Source: a virus
Lineage: Duplodnaviria > Caudoviricetes
Virus record (IMG/VR): IMGVR_UViG_3300037458_000362
Span: 1 to 30,729 of that record
Reading direction: 5' to 3' (one strand)
DNA length: 30,729 bases
Part shown: positions 3,777 to 21,237 of the stretch, piece by piece
Layout of the letters: each line of letters opens with the position of its first letter
Position numbering within the stretch: position 1 is the stretch's first letter
Notes under the pieces: generated by a model
What the model saw: the letters and a program-made list of their open reading frames with translations, nothing else
Databases searched by the model: none
What the model was told of the DNA's origin: nothing
Position numbers and translations under genes: made by a program

Positions 3777-4057
3777 TGCTTCGACTGTATGACTTTCGGT
3801 GTCCGGCTTGCGACGGTGTGGCTGAGCGGCTTGTGAATGACGGTGAAAAGGTAAAAAGCGCCTGCTGCGGGGCCGTCATGGAACGCCTGCCTCCGCGCAT
3901 CAACATCAACATGGGCCCGGCAGGGGCGCATGGCTATTACGATGAAAATCTCGGCACCTACGTCAACACCAATCGCCAGCGCCGGGAGCTGTGCAGGCAG
4001 CAGGGGGTTACGCCGAAAGGCGACACGCCAAAGCCGGATGGGGAGGCTTGGGTATGA
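3776..4057 (+). CDS. FmdB-like zinc-ribbon protein
   Basis: LYDFRCPAC...ACCG..MERL pattern; TAATG coupling to the portal; this gene type is common between portal and scaffold. Confidence 0.8.
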   Translation: MLRLYDFRCPACDGVAERLVNDGEKVKSACCGAVMERLPPRININMGPAGAHGYYDENLGTYVNTNRQRRELCRQQGVTPKGDTPKPDGEAWV

Positions 4058-4515
4058 GAATAACAGAACCGATTAATGTTGTTTTCTGGCGCAGGGTTAT
4101 AAATACCGGCGTAGATACATGCTGGAAGTGGACAGGGTCTAAAAACGACAAGGGATATGGACAAATAAGAAATAACAAGAAAATATTTTATGCGCATAGG
4201 ATTTCATACGAAATCCACAACGGTAGCATTAATGATGGGCAGGTTGTCATACACAGCTGCGACAATCCAGAGTGCACAAACCCAAGACACTTAAAAGTTG
4301 GTAGTCAGGCTGACAATTTACACGACGCCTTTATGAAGGGCCGCATGAATGGTACGCCAATATTTGATAATGATGTCAGAGATATAATTAATCTATACAA
4401 TATACAAGGCTACACACAAAAACACATAGCAAAATTGTATGGTTGCAACCAATCGAACATTTGTAGAATAGTAAATAACAAAACACGAAAGGCGGCCCAA
4501 AACGCGCATCTGTGA
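4054..4515 (+). CDS. Free-standing HNH endonuclease with C-terminal HTH
   Basis: CWKWTG..KGYG...AHRISY...HSCDNPECTNPRHL...N motif; HTH-like TQKHIAKLYGCNQSNICRIV; ATGA overlap at 4054; visibly more AT-rich than its flanks. Confidence 0.9.
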   Translation: MRITEPINVVFWRRVINTGVDTCWKWTGSKNDKGYGQIRNNKKIFYAHRISYEIHNGSINDGQVVIHSCDNPECTNPRHLKVGSQADNLHDAFMKGRMNGTPIFDNDVRDIINLYNIQGYTQKHIAKLYGCNQSNICRIVNNKTRKAAQNAHL

Positions 4516-5719: not shown

Positions 5720-6829
5720 ATGGCAACTATCGGGACCAATCCTTCACCAAGCACCAATACCGTTTACTATGACAGTCTCTTGACGACTACGCTGATGGCG
5801 TACCGCAAGGAACTGGTGGACAACATTTTCAAAGACTCCGCTTTTTTGTCTTACCTTCGCATGAAGGGTGCTGTCAAAAAGCAGAACGGCGGAGAGCGGG
5901 CGTCTATCCCGCTGATGTACGGAACCAATAAAACCGTATCGACTCACGGTGGATATTCCGTGATCGATACCACCCCGCAGGAAGGTTTTACCACGGCGTT
6001 TTATGAGTGGGCCGAGGTCGCTGGCAGCATCTCTATTAGCCGCAAAGAGGAACGGCAGAACAGTGGCGAGGGCCGACTCATCGACCTGTTGGCTTCGAAA
6101 GTGAAACAGGCCGAAATGAGCATGCGTGAAAAACTGAATAGCGACCTGATCCTTGGGACCGTCAGTTCTTCGACGTTCGTGCCCGACTCAGCGCAGGACG
6201 GCAGCAAGGGTCTTCTGCCTCTCGGTTTTTTCCTCCGCAAACTGAACGCTACCGACCCGACCGCGCCGACCACCGTGGGAAACATCTCGTCTGCTTCCTA
6301 CGACTGGTGGAGACACAAGACCGGCTGGGTGAACAACCAGAACGTGACCGGAAACAGCTTCTACGCTTCTGTTACCACTTACGCCGGCCTGAAAGCCTAT
6401 CTGCGCCGGATGTATAACTACTGTTCACGCGGTAGCGGCGGTGCTCCTAATCTGGTGCTTTTCGATCAGGTGTCTTTTGAAACTTACGAGAACGCACTTG
6501 ACGCCAGCATGCGGTACACTGATACCAAGATGGCCGACATGGGATTTGACACCATCAAACTGCGCGGGGCTACCTGCATTTGGGACGAAGTTGTACCGGA
6601 CATTTATACCGGGACGGCGGCTATCACTGTCGGCAGCGCGTTTTTCCTGAACACCGATTTTTACGGCCTGATGATCGACAGCGAAACGGACATCATCACG
6701 ACCCCGTTTGTCGAGCCAGAGAATCAGACGGCCAAAACTGCCAAGGTTCTTTTCATGGGGCAGGCTTGGTGCAGCAACCTTCGCAAGCTCGGAGTACTGG
6801 GCGGCATTTCGCAGTCTATCGTTTCTTAA
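5720..6829 (+). CDS. Major capsid protein
   Basis: 369 aa after the scaffold with GAGG RBS; motifs LVDNIF, GGER..IPLMYG.N, ISRKEERQNSGE and MGFDTI resemble HK97-fold capsids of uncultured podoviruses. Confidence 0.9.
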   Translation: MATIGTNPSPSTNTVYYDSLLTTTLMAYRKELVDNIFKDSAFLSYLRMKGAVKKQNGGERASIPLMYGTNKTVSTHGGYSVIDTTPQEGFTTAFYEWAEVAGSISISRKEERQNSGEGRLIDLLASKVKQAEMSMREKLNSDLILGTVSSSTFVPDSAQDGSKGLLPLGFFLRKLNATDPTAPTTVGNISSASYDWWRHKTGWVNNQNVTGNSFYASVTTYAGLKAYLRRMYNYCSRGSGGAPNLVLFDQVSFETYENALDASMRYTDTKMADMGFDTIKLRGATCIWDEVVPDIYTGTAAITVGSAFFLNTDFYGLMIDSETDIITTPFVEPENQTAKTAKVLFMGQAWCSNLRKLGVLGGISQSIVS

Positions 6830-6897
6830 CCTTTAACCCGTAACAAAACGGCGGGCGCGGCCCGCGTCAGTCACAACAAACGGAAGGAGAAGTAAAA

Positions 6898-8048
6898 ATG
6901 CTTTGGCAGAGGATTAGCAGGACCAACCCTGAAAAATGCTTCATCATCGTCAAGAACAGCTACAGCACTGCAAGCCTGACCGACGGGCAGGCGGTGATTT
7001 GGGATTAACGAATAGTCCCCCGTCGGCGCAATGGGCCTAACGCAAGATTTCTTAAAGACTCTGGATGAATAGATACATGAGCAGAACGGTTAACAAGCAA
7101 AAGGTTCTCAAGCGAGTTGTTGAGCTTGTTTCCGTCTATGTGGTGGACAATCTCGTTAGAGCAAAGTCTTCTGCCGAGATGTTTTTCCATAACGTAACGA
7201 TGCTCAAGAGTCGTGCCGCTTTCGGTCTTTATGACTTTGTAACCATGATTCCCGATGTAGCAGTCCCCTTCTCCGTTAGCTCTCTTTTTTCGGAAAAGAG
7301 GATCGCCATATCGCTTAAACCGAAGCCCGTGCTTGTTGCAGAAGCCGTTCCCTCTTACCGGCTTGCAACACCCTTCAATTTTGCAAAGATTCGGGGAATC
7401 ATGTTTCTTGAAACGGCCGCTCACCGGGTCTTTAATCATTCGGTTCATTGCTTGTCCTCCATTACAACCAGTTTACTACAGACGCTAATGGTTGTCAATC
7501 GGAACGATGGTTCACAGCGGGTGAATTCAGGGGAAGCCCCAACGGGTAACGCCGTGGGTAATCCTGAGCCAAGCCGGCGGTACACCGCCGGAAGGTGCAA
7601 CGACTACCGGAGTGGTTTAGTCCACTTAATGACCGGCATGAGCGCCCGCCCCGAAAGGGAAGAGATAGTCTACTCCTTGCAGTAATGCAAGGTAGCAAGG
7701 TTCGGAACCGATGTTGATGGCGTCGGCGTTACCCGCCCGACGGCCCGAGCCACTAACGCTGGGGTTGCAATTGCAGGTATCGCGGCCGAGACTATCGCGG
7801 CAGGCGACTATGGCATGGTACAGGTTTACGGCTACCATGCGGCTGTCCGCGTGCGCAACATGACCGGCGGCTCCCCTGCGGTTGCAGCCGGTTCTCCGCT
7901 CGCGCTCAATTCGGCGGGGTCCGTGTTTTGCCTGGAGAACTGGGACACCGGCAGCACCAACCTGCAAGTGCATAGCTGCGGGTTTGCCCTGGCGGCCCAA
8001 GCCTCCTGGACCACAAAGGCCGTCGCTGCTTTTCTGAAGTGCCTGTAA
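6898..8048 (+). CDS. Intron-split capsid cement/decoration-like protein: exon 1 6898-7005, exon 2 7701-8048, 151 aa after splicing
   Basis: AAGGAG RBS and ATG 6898. Exon 1 MLWQRIS...GQAVIWD joins in frame to FGTDVDGVGVT...AGIAAETIAAGDYGMVQVYG...FLKCL*. Exon 2 is in frame with listed ORF 7815-8048. Cement call rests on position after the MCP and the AGIA..I..GDYG.VQ.YG pattern. Confidence 0.85.
7005..7448 (-). CDS. Intron-borne HNH homing endonuclease, antisense to the intron
   Basis: CKIEGC..P....FCNKH zinc motif; EHRYVMEKHLGR...VHHIDGNKLNN..ENL HNH motif; GGAGG RBS 7 nt before the ATG on the minus strand. Confidence 0.92.
   Translation of the reverse strand: MNRMIKDPVSGRFKKHDSPNLCKIEGCCKPVRGNGFCNKHGLRFKRYGDPLFRKKRANGEGDCYIGNHGYKVIKTESGTTLEHRYVMEKHLGRRLCSNEIVHHIDGNKLNNSLENLLLVNRSAHVSIHPESLRNLALGPLRRRGTIR
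7006..7700 (+). ncRNA. Group I self-splicing intron (probably subgroup IA, extra helix between P7 and P3')
   Basis: P1 GGGAU|UA-acgaa-UAGUCCC with U-G at the splice site; P10 CGAA(7009-7012)/exon 2 UUCG; P3 GCGGG 7517-7521/CCCGC 7645-7649; P4 UCAGG 7527-7531/CCUGA 7563-7567; P7 GACUA 7602-7606/UAGUC 7666-7670; P8 CCC-GAAA-GGG; P9 CCUUGCA-GUAA-UGCAAGG; terminal G 7700. Confidence 0.93.
7470..7498 (-). promoter_or_regulatory. Sigma70-type promoter for the antisense intron HNH
   Basis: Minus strand reads TTGACA (7498-7493), 17 nt, TAAACT (7475-7470), then GGAGG and ATG. Confidence 0.75.
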
Positions 8049-8106: not shown

Positions 8107-8322
8107 ATGAAAGAATCTTTTACTGATCCAGTTGTAAGATGCACCGATTGCCAAAGGCTTATCACGCGGGCAGAAATCAGGAAATACGGCCTCTGTCCAG
8201 ATTGCGGGAACAAACGGGTGCGTAACGTGCTGGTGCTGAGCGGCAAAGAAGTCGAGCGCCTTAAAGAGATGGACATCGACCCCGCTTTTCTTGCAGAGTT
8301 TACGGCGGTAGACAATGGCTAA
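8107..8322 (+). CDS. Small zinc-finger protein
   Basis: RCTDC...LCPDCG; GGGGGA RBS; overlaps the next gene's start. Confidence 0.75.
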   Translation: MKESFTDPVVRCTDCQRLITRAEIRKYGLCPDCGNKRVRNVLVLSGKEVERLKEMDIDPAFLAEFTAVDNG

Positions 8323-9724
8323 GATACTGATTGGTATCCCCGCATACGGCCAAATGCCACCTGAAACCGAGGAAGATTATCTTCGGTTTTTTTATTATCT
8401 CGGACGCCGGTACACTGAGCATGATTTCTTTGTCGGTATCAAGCGCAAGGCCGAGCAGTTCCGCGCAAGGAATAGCATCGTCAAGGCCGCGTACCAGTGC
8501 GGCGCTGATTATATCTTGATGCTGGATGATGACCATGTAATCGATTTGGAAGGGACCAACGAAGCAAGCAGTCGGTATGAGTTTTTGCGGAAACTGATCG
8601 AACACCATGAGCGCATACCGGAAGCCGGAATCATCGGAGCGCTTTACTACCATCGCGGCGGTGAGTGCCGCCCGGTGCTGATGGAAGAAAAAGACGGCCA
8701 GTATTTCTACCTCCGCGACGACCAGATTAAGCACGGGCTGCAAGAGGTCACGGTGCAGGGCGGCGGCTGTATGCTCATCAAGTCAAAGGTGTTTGACAAG
8801 ATTGGAGCGGAGCCGTTCGAGCCTGAACATGAATACGGTACCGACTTTCAAATTTGCTTAAAGGCTCGAAACGCGGGGTTCAAAATCTACTGCGATACGT
8901 CCATCGAACTCGGTCATGTAAAAAACGAGCGGAGCATAGTGACGAGCAAGAATCGGCACCTGCACTATTCCGACTACATGAACCAGGACGACGCTATTCG
9001 CGAGAACGCAATCATGGGGCGCATCCTGCGTGAATTTCGCGCCGATGTGATGGAATATCTTGAAGTCGATAGCGTACCGCACCTGCTTGAGATTGCAGAA
9101 CAGTATGGACCTCATTCAAAAAAATTCAAGGAATATCAGGCGCAGAACAATATCAAGCAGTATTACATAGACTCTGAATTAGCATATCTTGCGCGGGCGT
9201 GTTTCATTCGATGCGAGGACAACCAACACCGTTTCGATCACTTTGTCTTAAACACCGTCAAGGCCGATGTGCCCGGTGTGGGGATGGACTTCGGATGTGG
9301 GTCCGCGCCGATTTCGTTTGAGCTGGTACGCAAGGGGCAAGTAATTTATTACTATGACATAGACGGTTCGGCCCCGTTTGAGTTCCTGAAATGGCGTGCC
9401 AGAAAATATGGGTTCTACGGCAGCCGGGCGATATTTCAGGAAGGCCCGCCGCCAGATGGCATGCTCGATTACTGCCTTTGCCTTGACTCAATCGAACACT
9501 TACCGGACGGCGAGTGGCAGGCGCTTATAAAGCGTATTGCGGTTGCGCTGAAACATGGCGGGGCGCTGATAACTAATTTTGTTTTGCTTACCGACATAAA
9601 AAACCATGAACACATTTTCACCGACCGGCAGGCGTTTATTGCCGAAGCTACAAAGAACGGCCTATGGCCGTTGAACACGGCTATTTATCAAAAAATGAGT
9701 GACCTAAATGGCATCGATCCTTAG
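8315..9724 (+). CDS. GT-A fold (GT2-like) glycosyltransferase fused to a class I SAM-dependent methyltransferase
   Basis: N-half: KILIGIPAY, ARNSIV, YILMLDDD (DxD), GGGCMLIK, GTDFQIC..AR.AGFKIY.D....LGH. C-half: MDFGCGSA, YYDID, CLDSIEHLP. Confidence 0.88.
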   Translation: MAKILIGIPAYGQMPPETEEDYLRFFYYLGRRYTEHDFFVGIKRKAEQFRARNSIVKAAYQCGADYILMLDDDHVIDLEGTNEASSRYEFLRKLIEHHERIPEAGIIGALYYHRGGECRPVLMEEKDGQYFYLRDDQIKHGLQEVTVQGGGCMLIKSKVFDKIGAEPFEPEHEYGTDFQICLKARNAGFKIYCDTSIELGHVKNERSIVTSKNRHLHYSDYMNQDDAIRENAIMGRILREFRADVMEYLEVDSVPHLLEIAEQYGPHSKKFKEYQAQNNIKQYYIDSELAYLARACFIRCEDNQHRFDHFVLNTVKADVPGVGMDFGCGSAPISFELVRKGQVIYYYDIDGSAPFEFLKWRARKYGFYGSRAIFQEGPPPDGMLDYCLCLDSIEHLPDGEWQALIKRIAVALKHGGALITNFVLLTDIKNHEHIFTDRQAFIAEATKNGLWPLNTAIYQKMSDLNGIDP

Positions 9725-19470: not shown

Positions 19471-20691
19471 ATGGGCAGACCAATCAAAAGAGGTAGTACT
19501 GACCAATCGGTAGTGATCCACATTATGGACTCAACCGATGGCTCAAACGAAACCGGGGTTGTCTATAATACCTCCGGTATTGACCTATGGTATCGGAGAC
19601 AGGGGTCTACAAAAACGAGCATTACAGAGGCCACTCTTGCCGCTACCGATTCGGCCCATTCAGACGGCGGGATTATCCATATTGGAGACGGCGACTACCG
19701 TCTGGATCTCCCTGATGCAGCAGTTGCGTCTTCAGCTGGAATTAATGAAGTGACTGTAGGTGGCACAGTGACTGGGATGATCGTAGTGTCCGACACCTTT
19801 CCGCTTGTCGCTTATGACCCTTACGATGCAGTTAGAATAGGGATAACCGCCCTGCCTAATGCTGCGGCCGATGCTGCCGGGGGCTTGCCGATTTCTGATG
19901 CTGGCGGGCTCGACCTTGATGCAAAACTTGCCAATACCAACGAAATCACAGCTGCAAGGATGGGCGCGCTCACCGACTGGATTAATGGAGGTAGGCTCGA
20001 CCTCATTATTGATGACATCTTGACGGACACCGGAACAACGCTTGACACCAAAATCAATACGATTGACGACTTCCTTGATACTGAAATCGCTGCTATCAAA
20101 ACTAAGACTGATTACCTGCCATCGGCTACAGCAGGCGCGGCCGGCGGTCTGTTTATCGCTGGAAGCAATGCCGCAACATCGATTACAACGGCGCTAACAG
20201 CGAATATTATTGGCAACATCACCGGCAACTTGAGCGGATCGGTTGGCAGCCTTACTGGGCATACGGTGCAGACTGGAGACAGCTATGCCCGACTGGGGGC
20301 ACCTGCTGGGGCTTCTATCAGCGCAGATATTGCGGCCGTGAAAACCCAGACTGCGGCTATCGAAGTAGACACACAAGACCTGCAAACGCAAGTGGGCACT
20401 GATGGCGCAGGATTAACCAACATGCCTTGGAATGCTGCTTGGGACGCAGAAGTGCAAAGCGAAGTCTTTGACGCTCTTGACTCGGCTTTCACTGATGCTA
20501 CCAGTCTGACCGCAAATGGTCTGCTTGACAGGATTCGGACGTTGATGTGGGTCCAAAGGAATAAAATAACGGTTACCGACGCCAACGGAAACACGGTTAT
20601 TTACAAGGACGATAACTCTACGCAGGCTTTTGCTGTCAATGCCATGCTGACGGACGATTCTACGAGTACTGTCCGGCTGCGCGCCGCATAG
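19471..20691 (+). CDS. Virion structural/fibre-associated protein
   Basis: AGGAG RBS; Ala/Asp/Thr-rich; GDYRLDLPDAA, AIKTKTD.LP and AEVQSEV.DAL patterns seen in phage fibre-region proteins. Confidence 0.65.
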   Translation: MGRPIKRGSTDQSVVIHIMDSTDGSNETGVVYNTSGIDLWYRRQGSTKTSITEATLAATDSAHSDGGIIHIGDGDYRLDLPDAAVASSAGINEVTVGGTVTGMIVVSDTFPLVAYDPYDAVRIGITALPNAAADAAGGLPISDAGGLDLDAKLANTNEITAARMGALTDWINGGRLDLIIDDILTDTGTTLDTKINTIDDFLDTEIAAIKTKTDYLPSATAGAAGGLFIAGSNAATSITTALTANIIGNITGNLSGSVGSLTGHTVQTGDSYARLGAPAGASISADIAAVKTQTAAIEVDTQDLQTQVGTDGAGLTNMPWNAAWDAEVQSEVFDALDSAFTDATSLTANGLLDRIRTLMWVQRNKITVTDANGNTVIYKDDNSTQAFAVNAMLTDDSTSTVRLRAA

Positions 20692-21178
20692 CAATTATAT
20701 TGCGCCCTTGGGCAAGAGAACACGATCTTGAACAATATATAGCGCTACTGTGATGTGTACCTTTATAAAATGTTTTTCCACAAATTGGGCATGCCTTATC
20801 AGGGAGCTTTCTTCTAAGCTTTGCATGGTAGCCGGAATGTCGCGCGTTGCATGTTACAATAAGATTTTCAATGCGGTCGTCGGACTTGTCTCCATTAATA
20901 TGGTGAACTATTTCGTTATCAGCAAGTGCCCTGCCAAGCTTTTGGCTCATAACGACTCTACTTCGCTTAATGTATCCTTTTCGCTTCCATGCGTTTGGAT
21001 GTTCAGGAAGATAAACGTAAGCGTACCCACCAAACCAAATAATATCTTTTCTCTTTTCCTTGTTCCAATGGCCTTTAAGATAGCCGGTTGGCTTTCCTCT
21101 CTTAATCTTAAGGTGGGCTTGCTTTTGCCTAAACTGAGTATCTGGAAGATCATTTCCGCAGCCACATTTACATTTCAT
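20660..21178 (-). CDS. Free-standing antisense HNH endonuclease
   Basis: GGAGG RBS favours ATG 21178 (MKCKCGCG); PEHPNA, VMSQKLGR.L...VHHINGDKSDDRIENL; C-terminal CPICGK.F...YCSRSC zinc motif. Confidence 0.9.
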   Translation of the reverse strand: MKCKCGCGNDLPDTQFRQKQAHLKIKRGKPTGYLKGHWNKEKRKDIIWFGGYAYVYLPEHPNAWKRKGYIKRSRVVMSQKLGRALADNEIVHHINGDKSDDRIENLIVTCNARHSGYHAKLRRKLPDKACPICGKTFYKGTHHSSAIYCSRSCSLAQGRNIIAMRRAAGQYS

Positions 21179-21208
21179 AGGTTCCTCCAAAATGTTAGTG
21201 TATGCTAT

Positions 21209-21237
21209 ATGATAACCGTAAACATTAAAAATGTCAA
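21209..21237 (-). promoter_or_regulatory. Sigma70-type promoter for the antisense HNH
   Basis: Minus strand reads TTGACA (21237-21232), 17 nt, TATCAT (21214-21209). Confidence 0.8.

Follow-up and report, generated by a model that had tools for sequence, protein, structure and literature searches.

The cement-like head gene of this phage is split by a group I intron that contains an HNH endonuclease gene, which is encoded backwards in the P2 loop and ends on the 5' splice site. The explanation that we regard as probable is that the HNH gene is a backward cassette, likely transcribed from its own promoter and likely driving the homing of the intron, and that its antisense overlap with the splice site is a by-product. 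The element is known with DNA context in only two independent copies, one in the window, which is the whole 30,729-nt stretch of DNA analysed here, and one in the locus L058, which is the same DNA as L180, L181 and L210.

The split head gene and its intron

Profile matches over the 30,729-nt window show a virion operon on the + strand with terminase, portal, major capsid and adaptor-like genes, and the runs that contain window DNA come from wetland and sediment metagenomes. The head genes discussed here are:

5720 to 6829, + strand: major capsid protein gene, uninterrupted (phrog_9953 major head protein, E 9.5e-42)
6898 to 7005, + strand: exon 1 of the cement-like head gene, 36 codons, ending in ...VIWD
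7701 to 8048, + strand: exon 2 of the cement-like head gene (Phage_cement_2, E 9.6e-5, 23.1 bits, below the cut-off of 24), with full-length intron-less homologues

The two exons together encode a spliced product of 151 aa, which is called cement-like because of the weak Phage_cement_2 score of exon 2 and the position of the gene. The sequence-only reading had put expression of the capsid gene at stake, and this part of it fails: the major capsid gene is whole and is ruled out as the intron host, and the next gene, which is the cement-like one, is split. The position 6195 in the capsid gene has A>G in three of four RNA runs, which is probably a strain allele. Directly past the head genes, as in Cluster J mycobacteriophages, a gene at 8315-9724 encodes a glycosyltransferase-methyltransferase fusion, for which capsid modification is possible. 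The third HNH gene of the window (3991-4515, + strand) is free-standing, in sense orientation, and located between the portal region and the gene preceding the capsid gene.

The elements of the intron are:

7006 to 7700, + strand: group I intron, 695 nt, with U at -1 and a terminal G
7001 to 7019, + strand: P1 helix with the internal guide sequence (7001-7007 paired with 7013-7019; U7005·G7015)
7009 to 7012 with 7701 to 7704, + strand: P10, in which both strands are changed yet still paired in L058
7020 to 7025, + strand: P2 5' arm, dual-coded, its opposite strand providing two Arg codons of the HNH gene
7505 to 7510, + strand: P2 3' arm, pairing with 7020-7025 (duplex of -9.0 kcal/mol)
7518 to 7671, + strand: catalytic core P3-P8 with a P7.1 insertion; P7 is 7600-7606 with 7666-7671

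Rfam model RF00028 has a single group I intron match in the window (64.3 bits against a cut-off of 50). Nine of ten homologues are continuous across the site in the protein alignment, with W/H-D followed by an aromatic residue or Leu, and the frame and the 7006-7700 boundaries are therefore fixed. Other 3' splice sites, among them 7692, where the Rfam alignment ends, and 7691, an in-frame G, are ruled out by these homologues and by an RNA joint. The exact joint of 7005 to 7701 is present in one contig from one of the four RNA runs, which extends over 262 nt without any differing letter and has a depth of 4, 89 nt on its short side and one ambiguous base. This contig fits spliced RNA, with an intron-less DNA allele as another possible source.

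The core resembles that of a bacterial tRNA(CAT) intron (L400) and those of other phage introns. Over five related introns, 98.5% of the cells in the core helices are paired and 14 of the 39 pairs are changed on both sides, in a structure drawn from the window sequence, which favours that structure over the slid controls; none of 500 shuffles was paired as highly, and the slid controls reached at most 50%. By its core, the U·G pair of P1, the terminal G and P10, the element is assigned to the group I introns, and self-splicing is predicted.

The antisense HNH gene and its signals

The HNH gene and the signals that would serve it are all on the minus strand:

7448 to 7005, - strand: HNH endonuclease gene, 147 aa, in the P2 loop; Pfam HNH_3 (PF13392), E 6e-12, 45.4 bits against a cut-off of 24.8
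7456 to 7460, - strand: GGAGG ribosome-binding site, 7 nt ahead of the ATG, present also in L058
7470 to 7498, - strand: sigma70-like promoter in the P2 loop, with TTGACA at 7498-7493, 17 nt, and TAAACT at 7475-7470
6851 to 6865, facing the - strand: terminator-like hairpin with a U-tract, a possible end of the HNH transcript, within an intergenic motif common to intron-less alleles

The sequence-only reading described a minus-strand HNH gene between P1 and the core, with final codons and a stop complementary to the internal guide and the 5' splice site. Both points are confirmed, the second codon by codon. The reading frame passes through the 5' arm of P2, then the guide sequence and the loop of P1, with Arg (7025-7023), Arg (7022-7020), Gly (7019-7017), Thr (7016-7014), Ile (7013-7011) and Arg (7010-7008) as its final codons, and ends at a TAA that is the complement of 7005-7007 (-1 to +2). 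Any minus-strand transcript of the gene would necessarily be antisense to the 5' splice site and to the P1 and P2 helices. The conserved U(-1)-U-A gives an opposite-strand stop in one frame of three. Since the HNH tail extends over P2 and P1, the RNA helices would determine its last codons, and the gene is a clean example of a protein C-terminus set by P2 and the guide sequence of the opposite strand.

Residues H83, H102, H103, N107, N111 and N115 are invariant in all 14 HNH homologues. A PDB search with the single HNH sequence gave no match, whereas the profile of the 14 homologues matches the HNH homing endonuclease of PDB entry 1u3e, which we take to be I-HmuI, over positions 47-125 (E 2e-4), and H124 is aligned with the last ligand position of that structure. 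The nuclease segment can be aligned in both proteins. Unlike 1u3e, the window HNH carries a C22-C27-C37-H40 cluster at its N-terminus, and where 1u3e has a long C-terminal DNA-binding region it ends in a short tail. The AlphaFold model (mean pLDDT 77, pTM 0.48) is confident only in the nuclease segment, with values of about 90 over residues 81-120.

The second copy, L058, has the intron at the same codon, the same P1, and an antisense HNH that is 60% identical to that of the window (86 of 143 aligned residues). The differences between the two genes are distributed as 40, 38 and 93 over codon positions 1, 2 and 3 of the minus-strand frame, a third-position bias which indicates that this frame is under selection; dN/dS (NG86) is unusable for this pair, dS being saturated. 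The stop of L058 is a TGA at +4 to +6, compared with the TAA at -1 to +2 in the window, and the shift accompanies a 1-nt change in the P1 loop. The P2 duplex is longer in L058, with -20.2 kcal/mol against the -9.0 of the window. Among the closest HNH homologues without DNA context (P0001-P0007, of which P0005 is the L058 protein), six of seven have G-T or R-T at the C-terminus, and because the Thr codon is the complement of the guide AGU these homologues are likely in the same position. Both introns have a long + strand open frame in register opposite the HNH gene (7065-7685 in the window and 1876-2430 in L058). That of the window, which encodes 206 aa, matches no Pfam family and was set aside as a shadow frame.

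Promoter-like sites over 5 kb are at chance level (2 against 2.7±1.9 in shuffles), and it is the position of the site that is non-random. When the 80 nt upstream of the HNH gene were base-shuffled 20,000 times, a promoter site of at least 10/12 had P=0.006 and the ribosome-binding site P=0.0055. A promoter, a ribosome-binding site and a start codon are combined at just two sites of the window, both ahead of minus-strand HNH genes. These results support the proposal that TTGACA-17-TAAACT and GGAGG serve the HNH gene, which would then be expressed from a promoter of its own. In L058 the promoter-like site, TTGCCT-17-CATACT, is at the same place with 8/12 (P=0.076), and the placement of promoter and ribosome-binding site is thus common to both copies, with the spacer sequence changed. 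As the gene is backward, it would be translated neither from the abundant virion mRNA nor from the excised intron, and its dose and timing would be set only by its own promoter. A search for an operator-like match to the homing site, by which the endonuclease could repress itself, gave none that is convincing (best 10/14).

The other of these two sites belongs to a free-standing HNH_3 gene of the virion operon (21178 to 20660, - strand, E 2.4e-9), which has no intron core. It is preceded by TTGACA-17-TATCAT and GGAGG (window 20660-21237) and its stop overlaps the end of a + strand gene at 19471-20691. Because this backward HNH gene with a promoter-like site is free-standing, the combination of backward orientation and own promoter is a property of the HNH cassettes in this phage and needs no splice site.

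The terminator-like hairpin passes a terminator test in two of 26 intron-less alleles and fails in L058, and is therefore not tied to the intron. It lies in the gap between the capsid and cement-like genes, where 6843-6890 comprises a conserved ACAAAACG, a variable hairpin and then CAGUCACAAAA just ahead of the ribosome-binding site. This intergenic motif, which has no Rfam match in the window, is found by eye in 15 of 28 alleles, with and without intron (window, L058, L184, L185, L189, L190, L193-L196, L198, L199 and L204-L206), and is possibly a translational operator or an antisense-RNA terminator.

Antisense endonucleases in other introns

A core motif from the window intron detects at least 121 viral loci in a search that covered 13 of 64 parts, a biased and partial sample, and 80 of these loci have flanks. 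Of the 136 core-adjacent ORFs, 82 were compared with Pfam, as were two others, and the remainder were classified with local HNH profiles. An endonuclease-like ORF is inside the intron in 39 of the 80 loci, of which 22 are antisense and 17 sense, the internal placement of the sense ORFs being checked by eye on 8 representatives. The nuclease is outside the intron in 3 of the remaining loci, ambiguous in 1, and none is seen in 37; L067, L101, L117 and L400 (nuclease ORF outside the intron) and L129 (ambiguous) were left out of the tallies. All 22 antisense loci represent one site, which is the fourth codon of a gene similar to one of Synechococcus phage S-EIV1, while the 17 sense loci are spread over about seven sites. 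Antisense orientation is a minority by site (1/8, or 2/9 including the window) and is not rare by locus. The sequence-only reading held that the arrangement would be less novel if antisense HNH genes proved common, and this applies in part, as antisense intron endonucleases are known from mycobacteriophage LittleE, from nuclear introns and from the 22 loci of one phage family.

The S-EIV1-like family shares with the window a related core, an antisense HNH 5' of the core, a promoter-like site next to the core and a stop at most 10 nt from the 5' splice site. It differs in its host gene and in its longer HNH, which has a C-terminal HTH; the stop is right after the splice site, with the guide apparently beyond the ORF, which would then stop short of a complete P1 and P2. 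A TAnnnT at a fitting distance is present in 17 of 18 distinct upstream sequences of this family, with the middle three bases variable, and in 16 upstream sequences it is accompanied by an extended TG, a pattern that a used promoter would be expected to show. A loss of the -10 box in the ORF-less introns of the family was rejected, as the box is absent in five of these nine introns and present in four. The S-EIV1-like gene has additional group I introns elsewhere (L106:2266-3168 and L117). Of 80 bacterial and archaeal loci, 47 have a core, and none yielded a confirmed antisense endonuclease inside an intron. In five of the loci, from Omnitrophota and Patescibacteria (L343, L350, L353, L371 and L377), the group I core lies within a tRNA-Thr/tRNA-Gly cluster, and a sense ORF of 220-250 aa without a clear Pfam family precedes it on the 5' side; these ORFs are possible unrecognised homing endonucleases.

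The mycobacteriophage LittleE has a spliced intron in its major capsid gene with an endonuclease ORF (gene 14) on the bottom strand, as described in a part of Pope et al. 2013 (PMC3706429). Like the window, LittleE thus combines a group I intron in a phage virion gene with an opposite-strand endonuclease ORF, and splicing in vivo is reported there for LittleE. In the LittleE record (L331), the core is at 559-762 and the ORF, which has a weak LAGLIDADG_3 score, is 3' of it at 765-1298. The LittleE ORF does not overlap P1, whereas the window has an HNH_3 gene in the P2 loop of an intron in a cement-like gene, with a tail dual-coded with P2 and the guide sequence.

Nuclear introns with antisense homing endonuclease genes (HEGs) include Dir.S956-2 (I-DirII) and Dsq.L2066 (I-DsqI), which have their own internal promoter according to the relevant sections of PMC9548176 and PMC3073962. 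The likeness to the window is in the antisense HEG and in the internal promoter, which is likely in the window; on the same sections, the nuclear introns differ in being located in eukaryotic rDNA, in their His-Cys box enzymes, in their transcription by RNA polymerase II and, for I-DsqI, in the P9.2 location. One section of PMC9548176 poses antisense interference with the host transcript as an open question and proposes separation in space or time as the answer. The window, unlike the nuclear introns, is transcribed in a bacterial setting with no compartment that separates the two RNAs, and it brings into this compact setting the question of how an antisense homing gene can be expressed while splicing goes on unharmed.

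In T4, the endonucleases of the td, nrdD and nrdB introns (I-TevI-III) are sense-strand genes regulated by a hairpin that sequesters the ribosome-binding site and by autorepression, as given in a part of PMC2988022. Like the window HNH, they are intron HEGs with a promoter and a ribosome-binding site of their own; unlike them, the window has no convincing operator-like match. Own promoters and overlaps between ORF and helices are known for T4 and other bacterial introns from sections of PMC2988022 and PMC3984707. An antisense or opposite orientation is not mentioned in the available sections of PMC3984707, PMC11835236 and PMC11878797, and those of PMC3428280, PMC10914365, PMC4528723 and PMC5107563 contain no relevant passage. 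In the literature covered, which is mostly open-access main texts rather than supplements with possible tables of ORF strands, no description was found of an antisense HNH in P2, of an ORF tail dual-coded with the guide, or of a cement-like gene split by an intron. Antisense endonuclease ORFs are already known, from a phage capsid intron as well as from nuclear introns, and antisense interference has been raised in print. New in the window are the identity of the host gene, the location in the P2 loop with a tail that is dual-coded, and RNA and tree evidence taken together.

By base-pairing to P1, to the 5' splice site and probably to exon 1 with its ribosome-binding site, the HNH mRNA could act as an antisense regulator that delays splicing and cement synthesis until late in infection, which is the proposal of the sequence-only reading transferred to the cement-like gene and which we consider unlikely. 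A transcript from about 7463 to the hairpin at 6865-6851 (about 620 nt) would cover P2, P1, exon 1 and its ribosome-binding site, and would spare the capsid ORF. The 25-bp antisense duplex has -48.7 kcal/mol compared with -6.9 for P1, which holds for any perfect antisense RNA. The antisense stops are at -1 to +2 in the window, +4 to +6 in L058, +3 to +5 in the 21-locus family and +7 to +9 in L106; all four antisense arrangements 5' of the core thus stop at most 10 nt from the splice site, which regulation also predicts and which is a point against the by-product explanation. The exact stop on the splice site is, however, not conserved between the window and L058, and the hairpin is independent of the intron. 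A junction as in spliced exons is seen in one of the four RNA runs, so a block would probably not be absolute, and the LittleE intron, with its bottom-strand ORF, is spliced during infection in the account of PMC3706429. The same phage has a self-promoted antisense HNH outside any intron, and ORF-less introns are found in the same gene (L058) and in the S-EIV1-like family (nine loci), which also argues against a regulatory role.

It is quite unlikely that an antisense HNH 5' of the core is a recurrent design of virion introns, in which its mRNA would be a timer that keeps the head-protein message unspliced during homing; one promoter would then both launch the nuclease and delay virion assembly. 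If antisense RNA gates splicing, a selfish gene regulates virion assembly, and if it does not, the element is a tidy variation on a known mobile intron.

Origin and probable mobility of the intron

According to the preferred explanation of a backward homing cassette, a self-promoted HNH gene would have been inserted backwards into the P2 loop, and its 3' end would have grown across P2 and P1 until the first stop codon was reached, much like the 'core creep' that is described in a section of PMC3073962 as an outcome where the end of the ORF overlaps intron helices. The HNH would move the intron into intron-less copies of the gene by homing. On this view the overlap with the splice site would have no regulatory purpose; it would be a side effect, tolerated since the antisense transcript may be scarce or earlier than the virion mRNA.

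Alleles of the host gene are open across the site in 26 of 27 database loci, and the remaining one (L058) is intron-bearing. In a protein tree of 26 rows, from which two truncated alleles were omitted, a clade of the two intron-bearing alleles is rejected (AU p=0.0002) and L058 is sister to the intron-less L189 with support of 99/97. The simplest reading of this patchy distribution is that the intron has spread laterally, and repeated intron loss is possible. As a measure of co-conversion of the flanking exon, the last 24 nt of exon 1 have 22/24 identical positions between L058 and the window and 21/24 in the best intron-less alleles, and exon 1 ends in the same six bases in 12 of 24 intron-less alleles.

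A silent or decaying HNH, with its promoter-like sequence unused and the intron now inherited only vertically, is very unlikely in our judgement. Promoter-like sites are at chance frequency over the region, the site of L058 reaches just 8/12, and none of the four RNA runs has a contig over the HNH gene (7010-7479), a result made uninformative by a depth of only about 2-5 elsewhere; the contigs are unstranded. A passenger of this kind is opposed by the open frame, the intact active-site residues and the third-position bias of the divergence, by the promoter and ribosome-binding site at the same place in two phages despite the changed spacer, and by an intron distribution that is patchy and does not form one clade. 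Least probable of all is interference competition, in which the HNH would be retained chiefly to attack intron-less relatives in the same cell and homing would come second. The many intron-less alleles with a similar junction and a precedent in another phage intron endonuclease (in a part of PMC11620839) could be cited for this, and it is compatible with the homing explanation.

Several features open the element to experiment. The intron is compact at 695 nt, the near-consensus promoter could be altered while the helices stay intact, the L058 copy offers a natural comparison in which the stop is shifted, and intron-less target alleles are numerous. Further copies were searched for in three ways. 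A search with the alignment of the two HNH proteins returned the L058 DNA again and two distant free-standing HNHs, with nothing in GTDB genomes. Among 48 loci with HNH relatives in viral contigs, two (L026 and L040) have an intron-core match with E<0.01; in these the core is on the same strand as the HNH, and neither is a close relative. A scan of 120 loci with the P1 pattern found no additional copy of the window element. In two other phage loci, L262 and L289, whose sequence is unrelated, a P1-like helix that is almost the same lies close to group I cores. The cement-like gene of L058 has a second group I intron near codon 6 (L058:1505-1724), which is ORF-less and 220 nt long, has a plain hairpin as its P2, and scores 44.7 bits with Rfam, below the cut-off.
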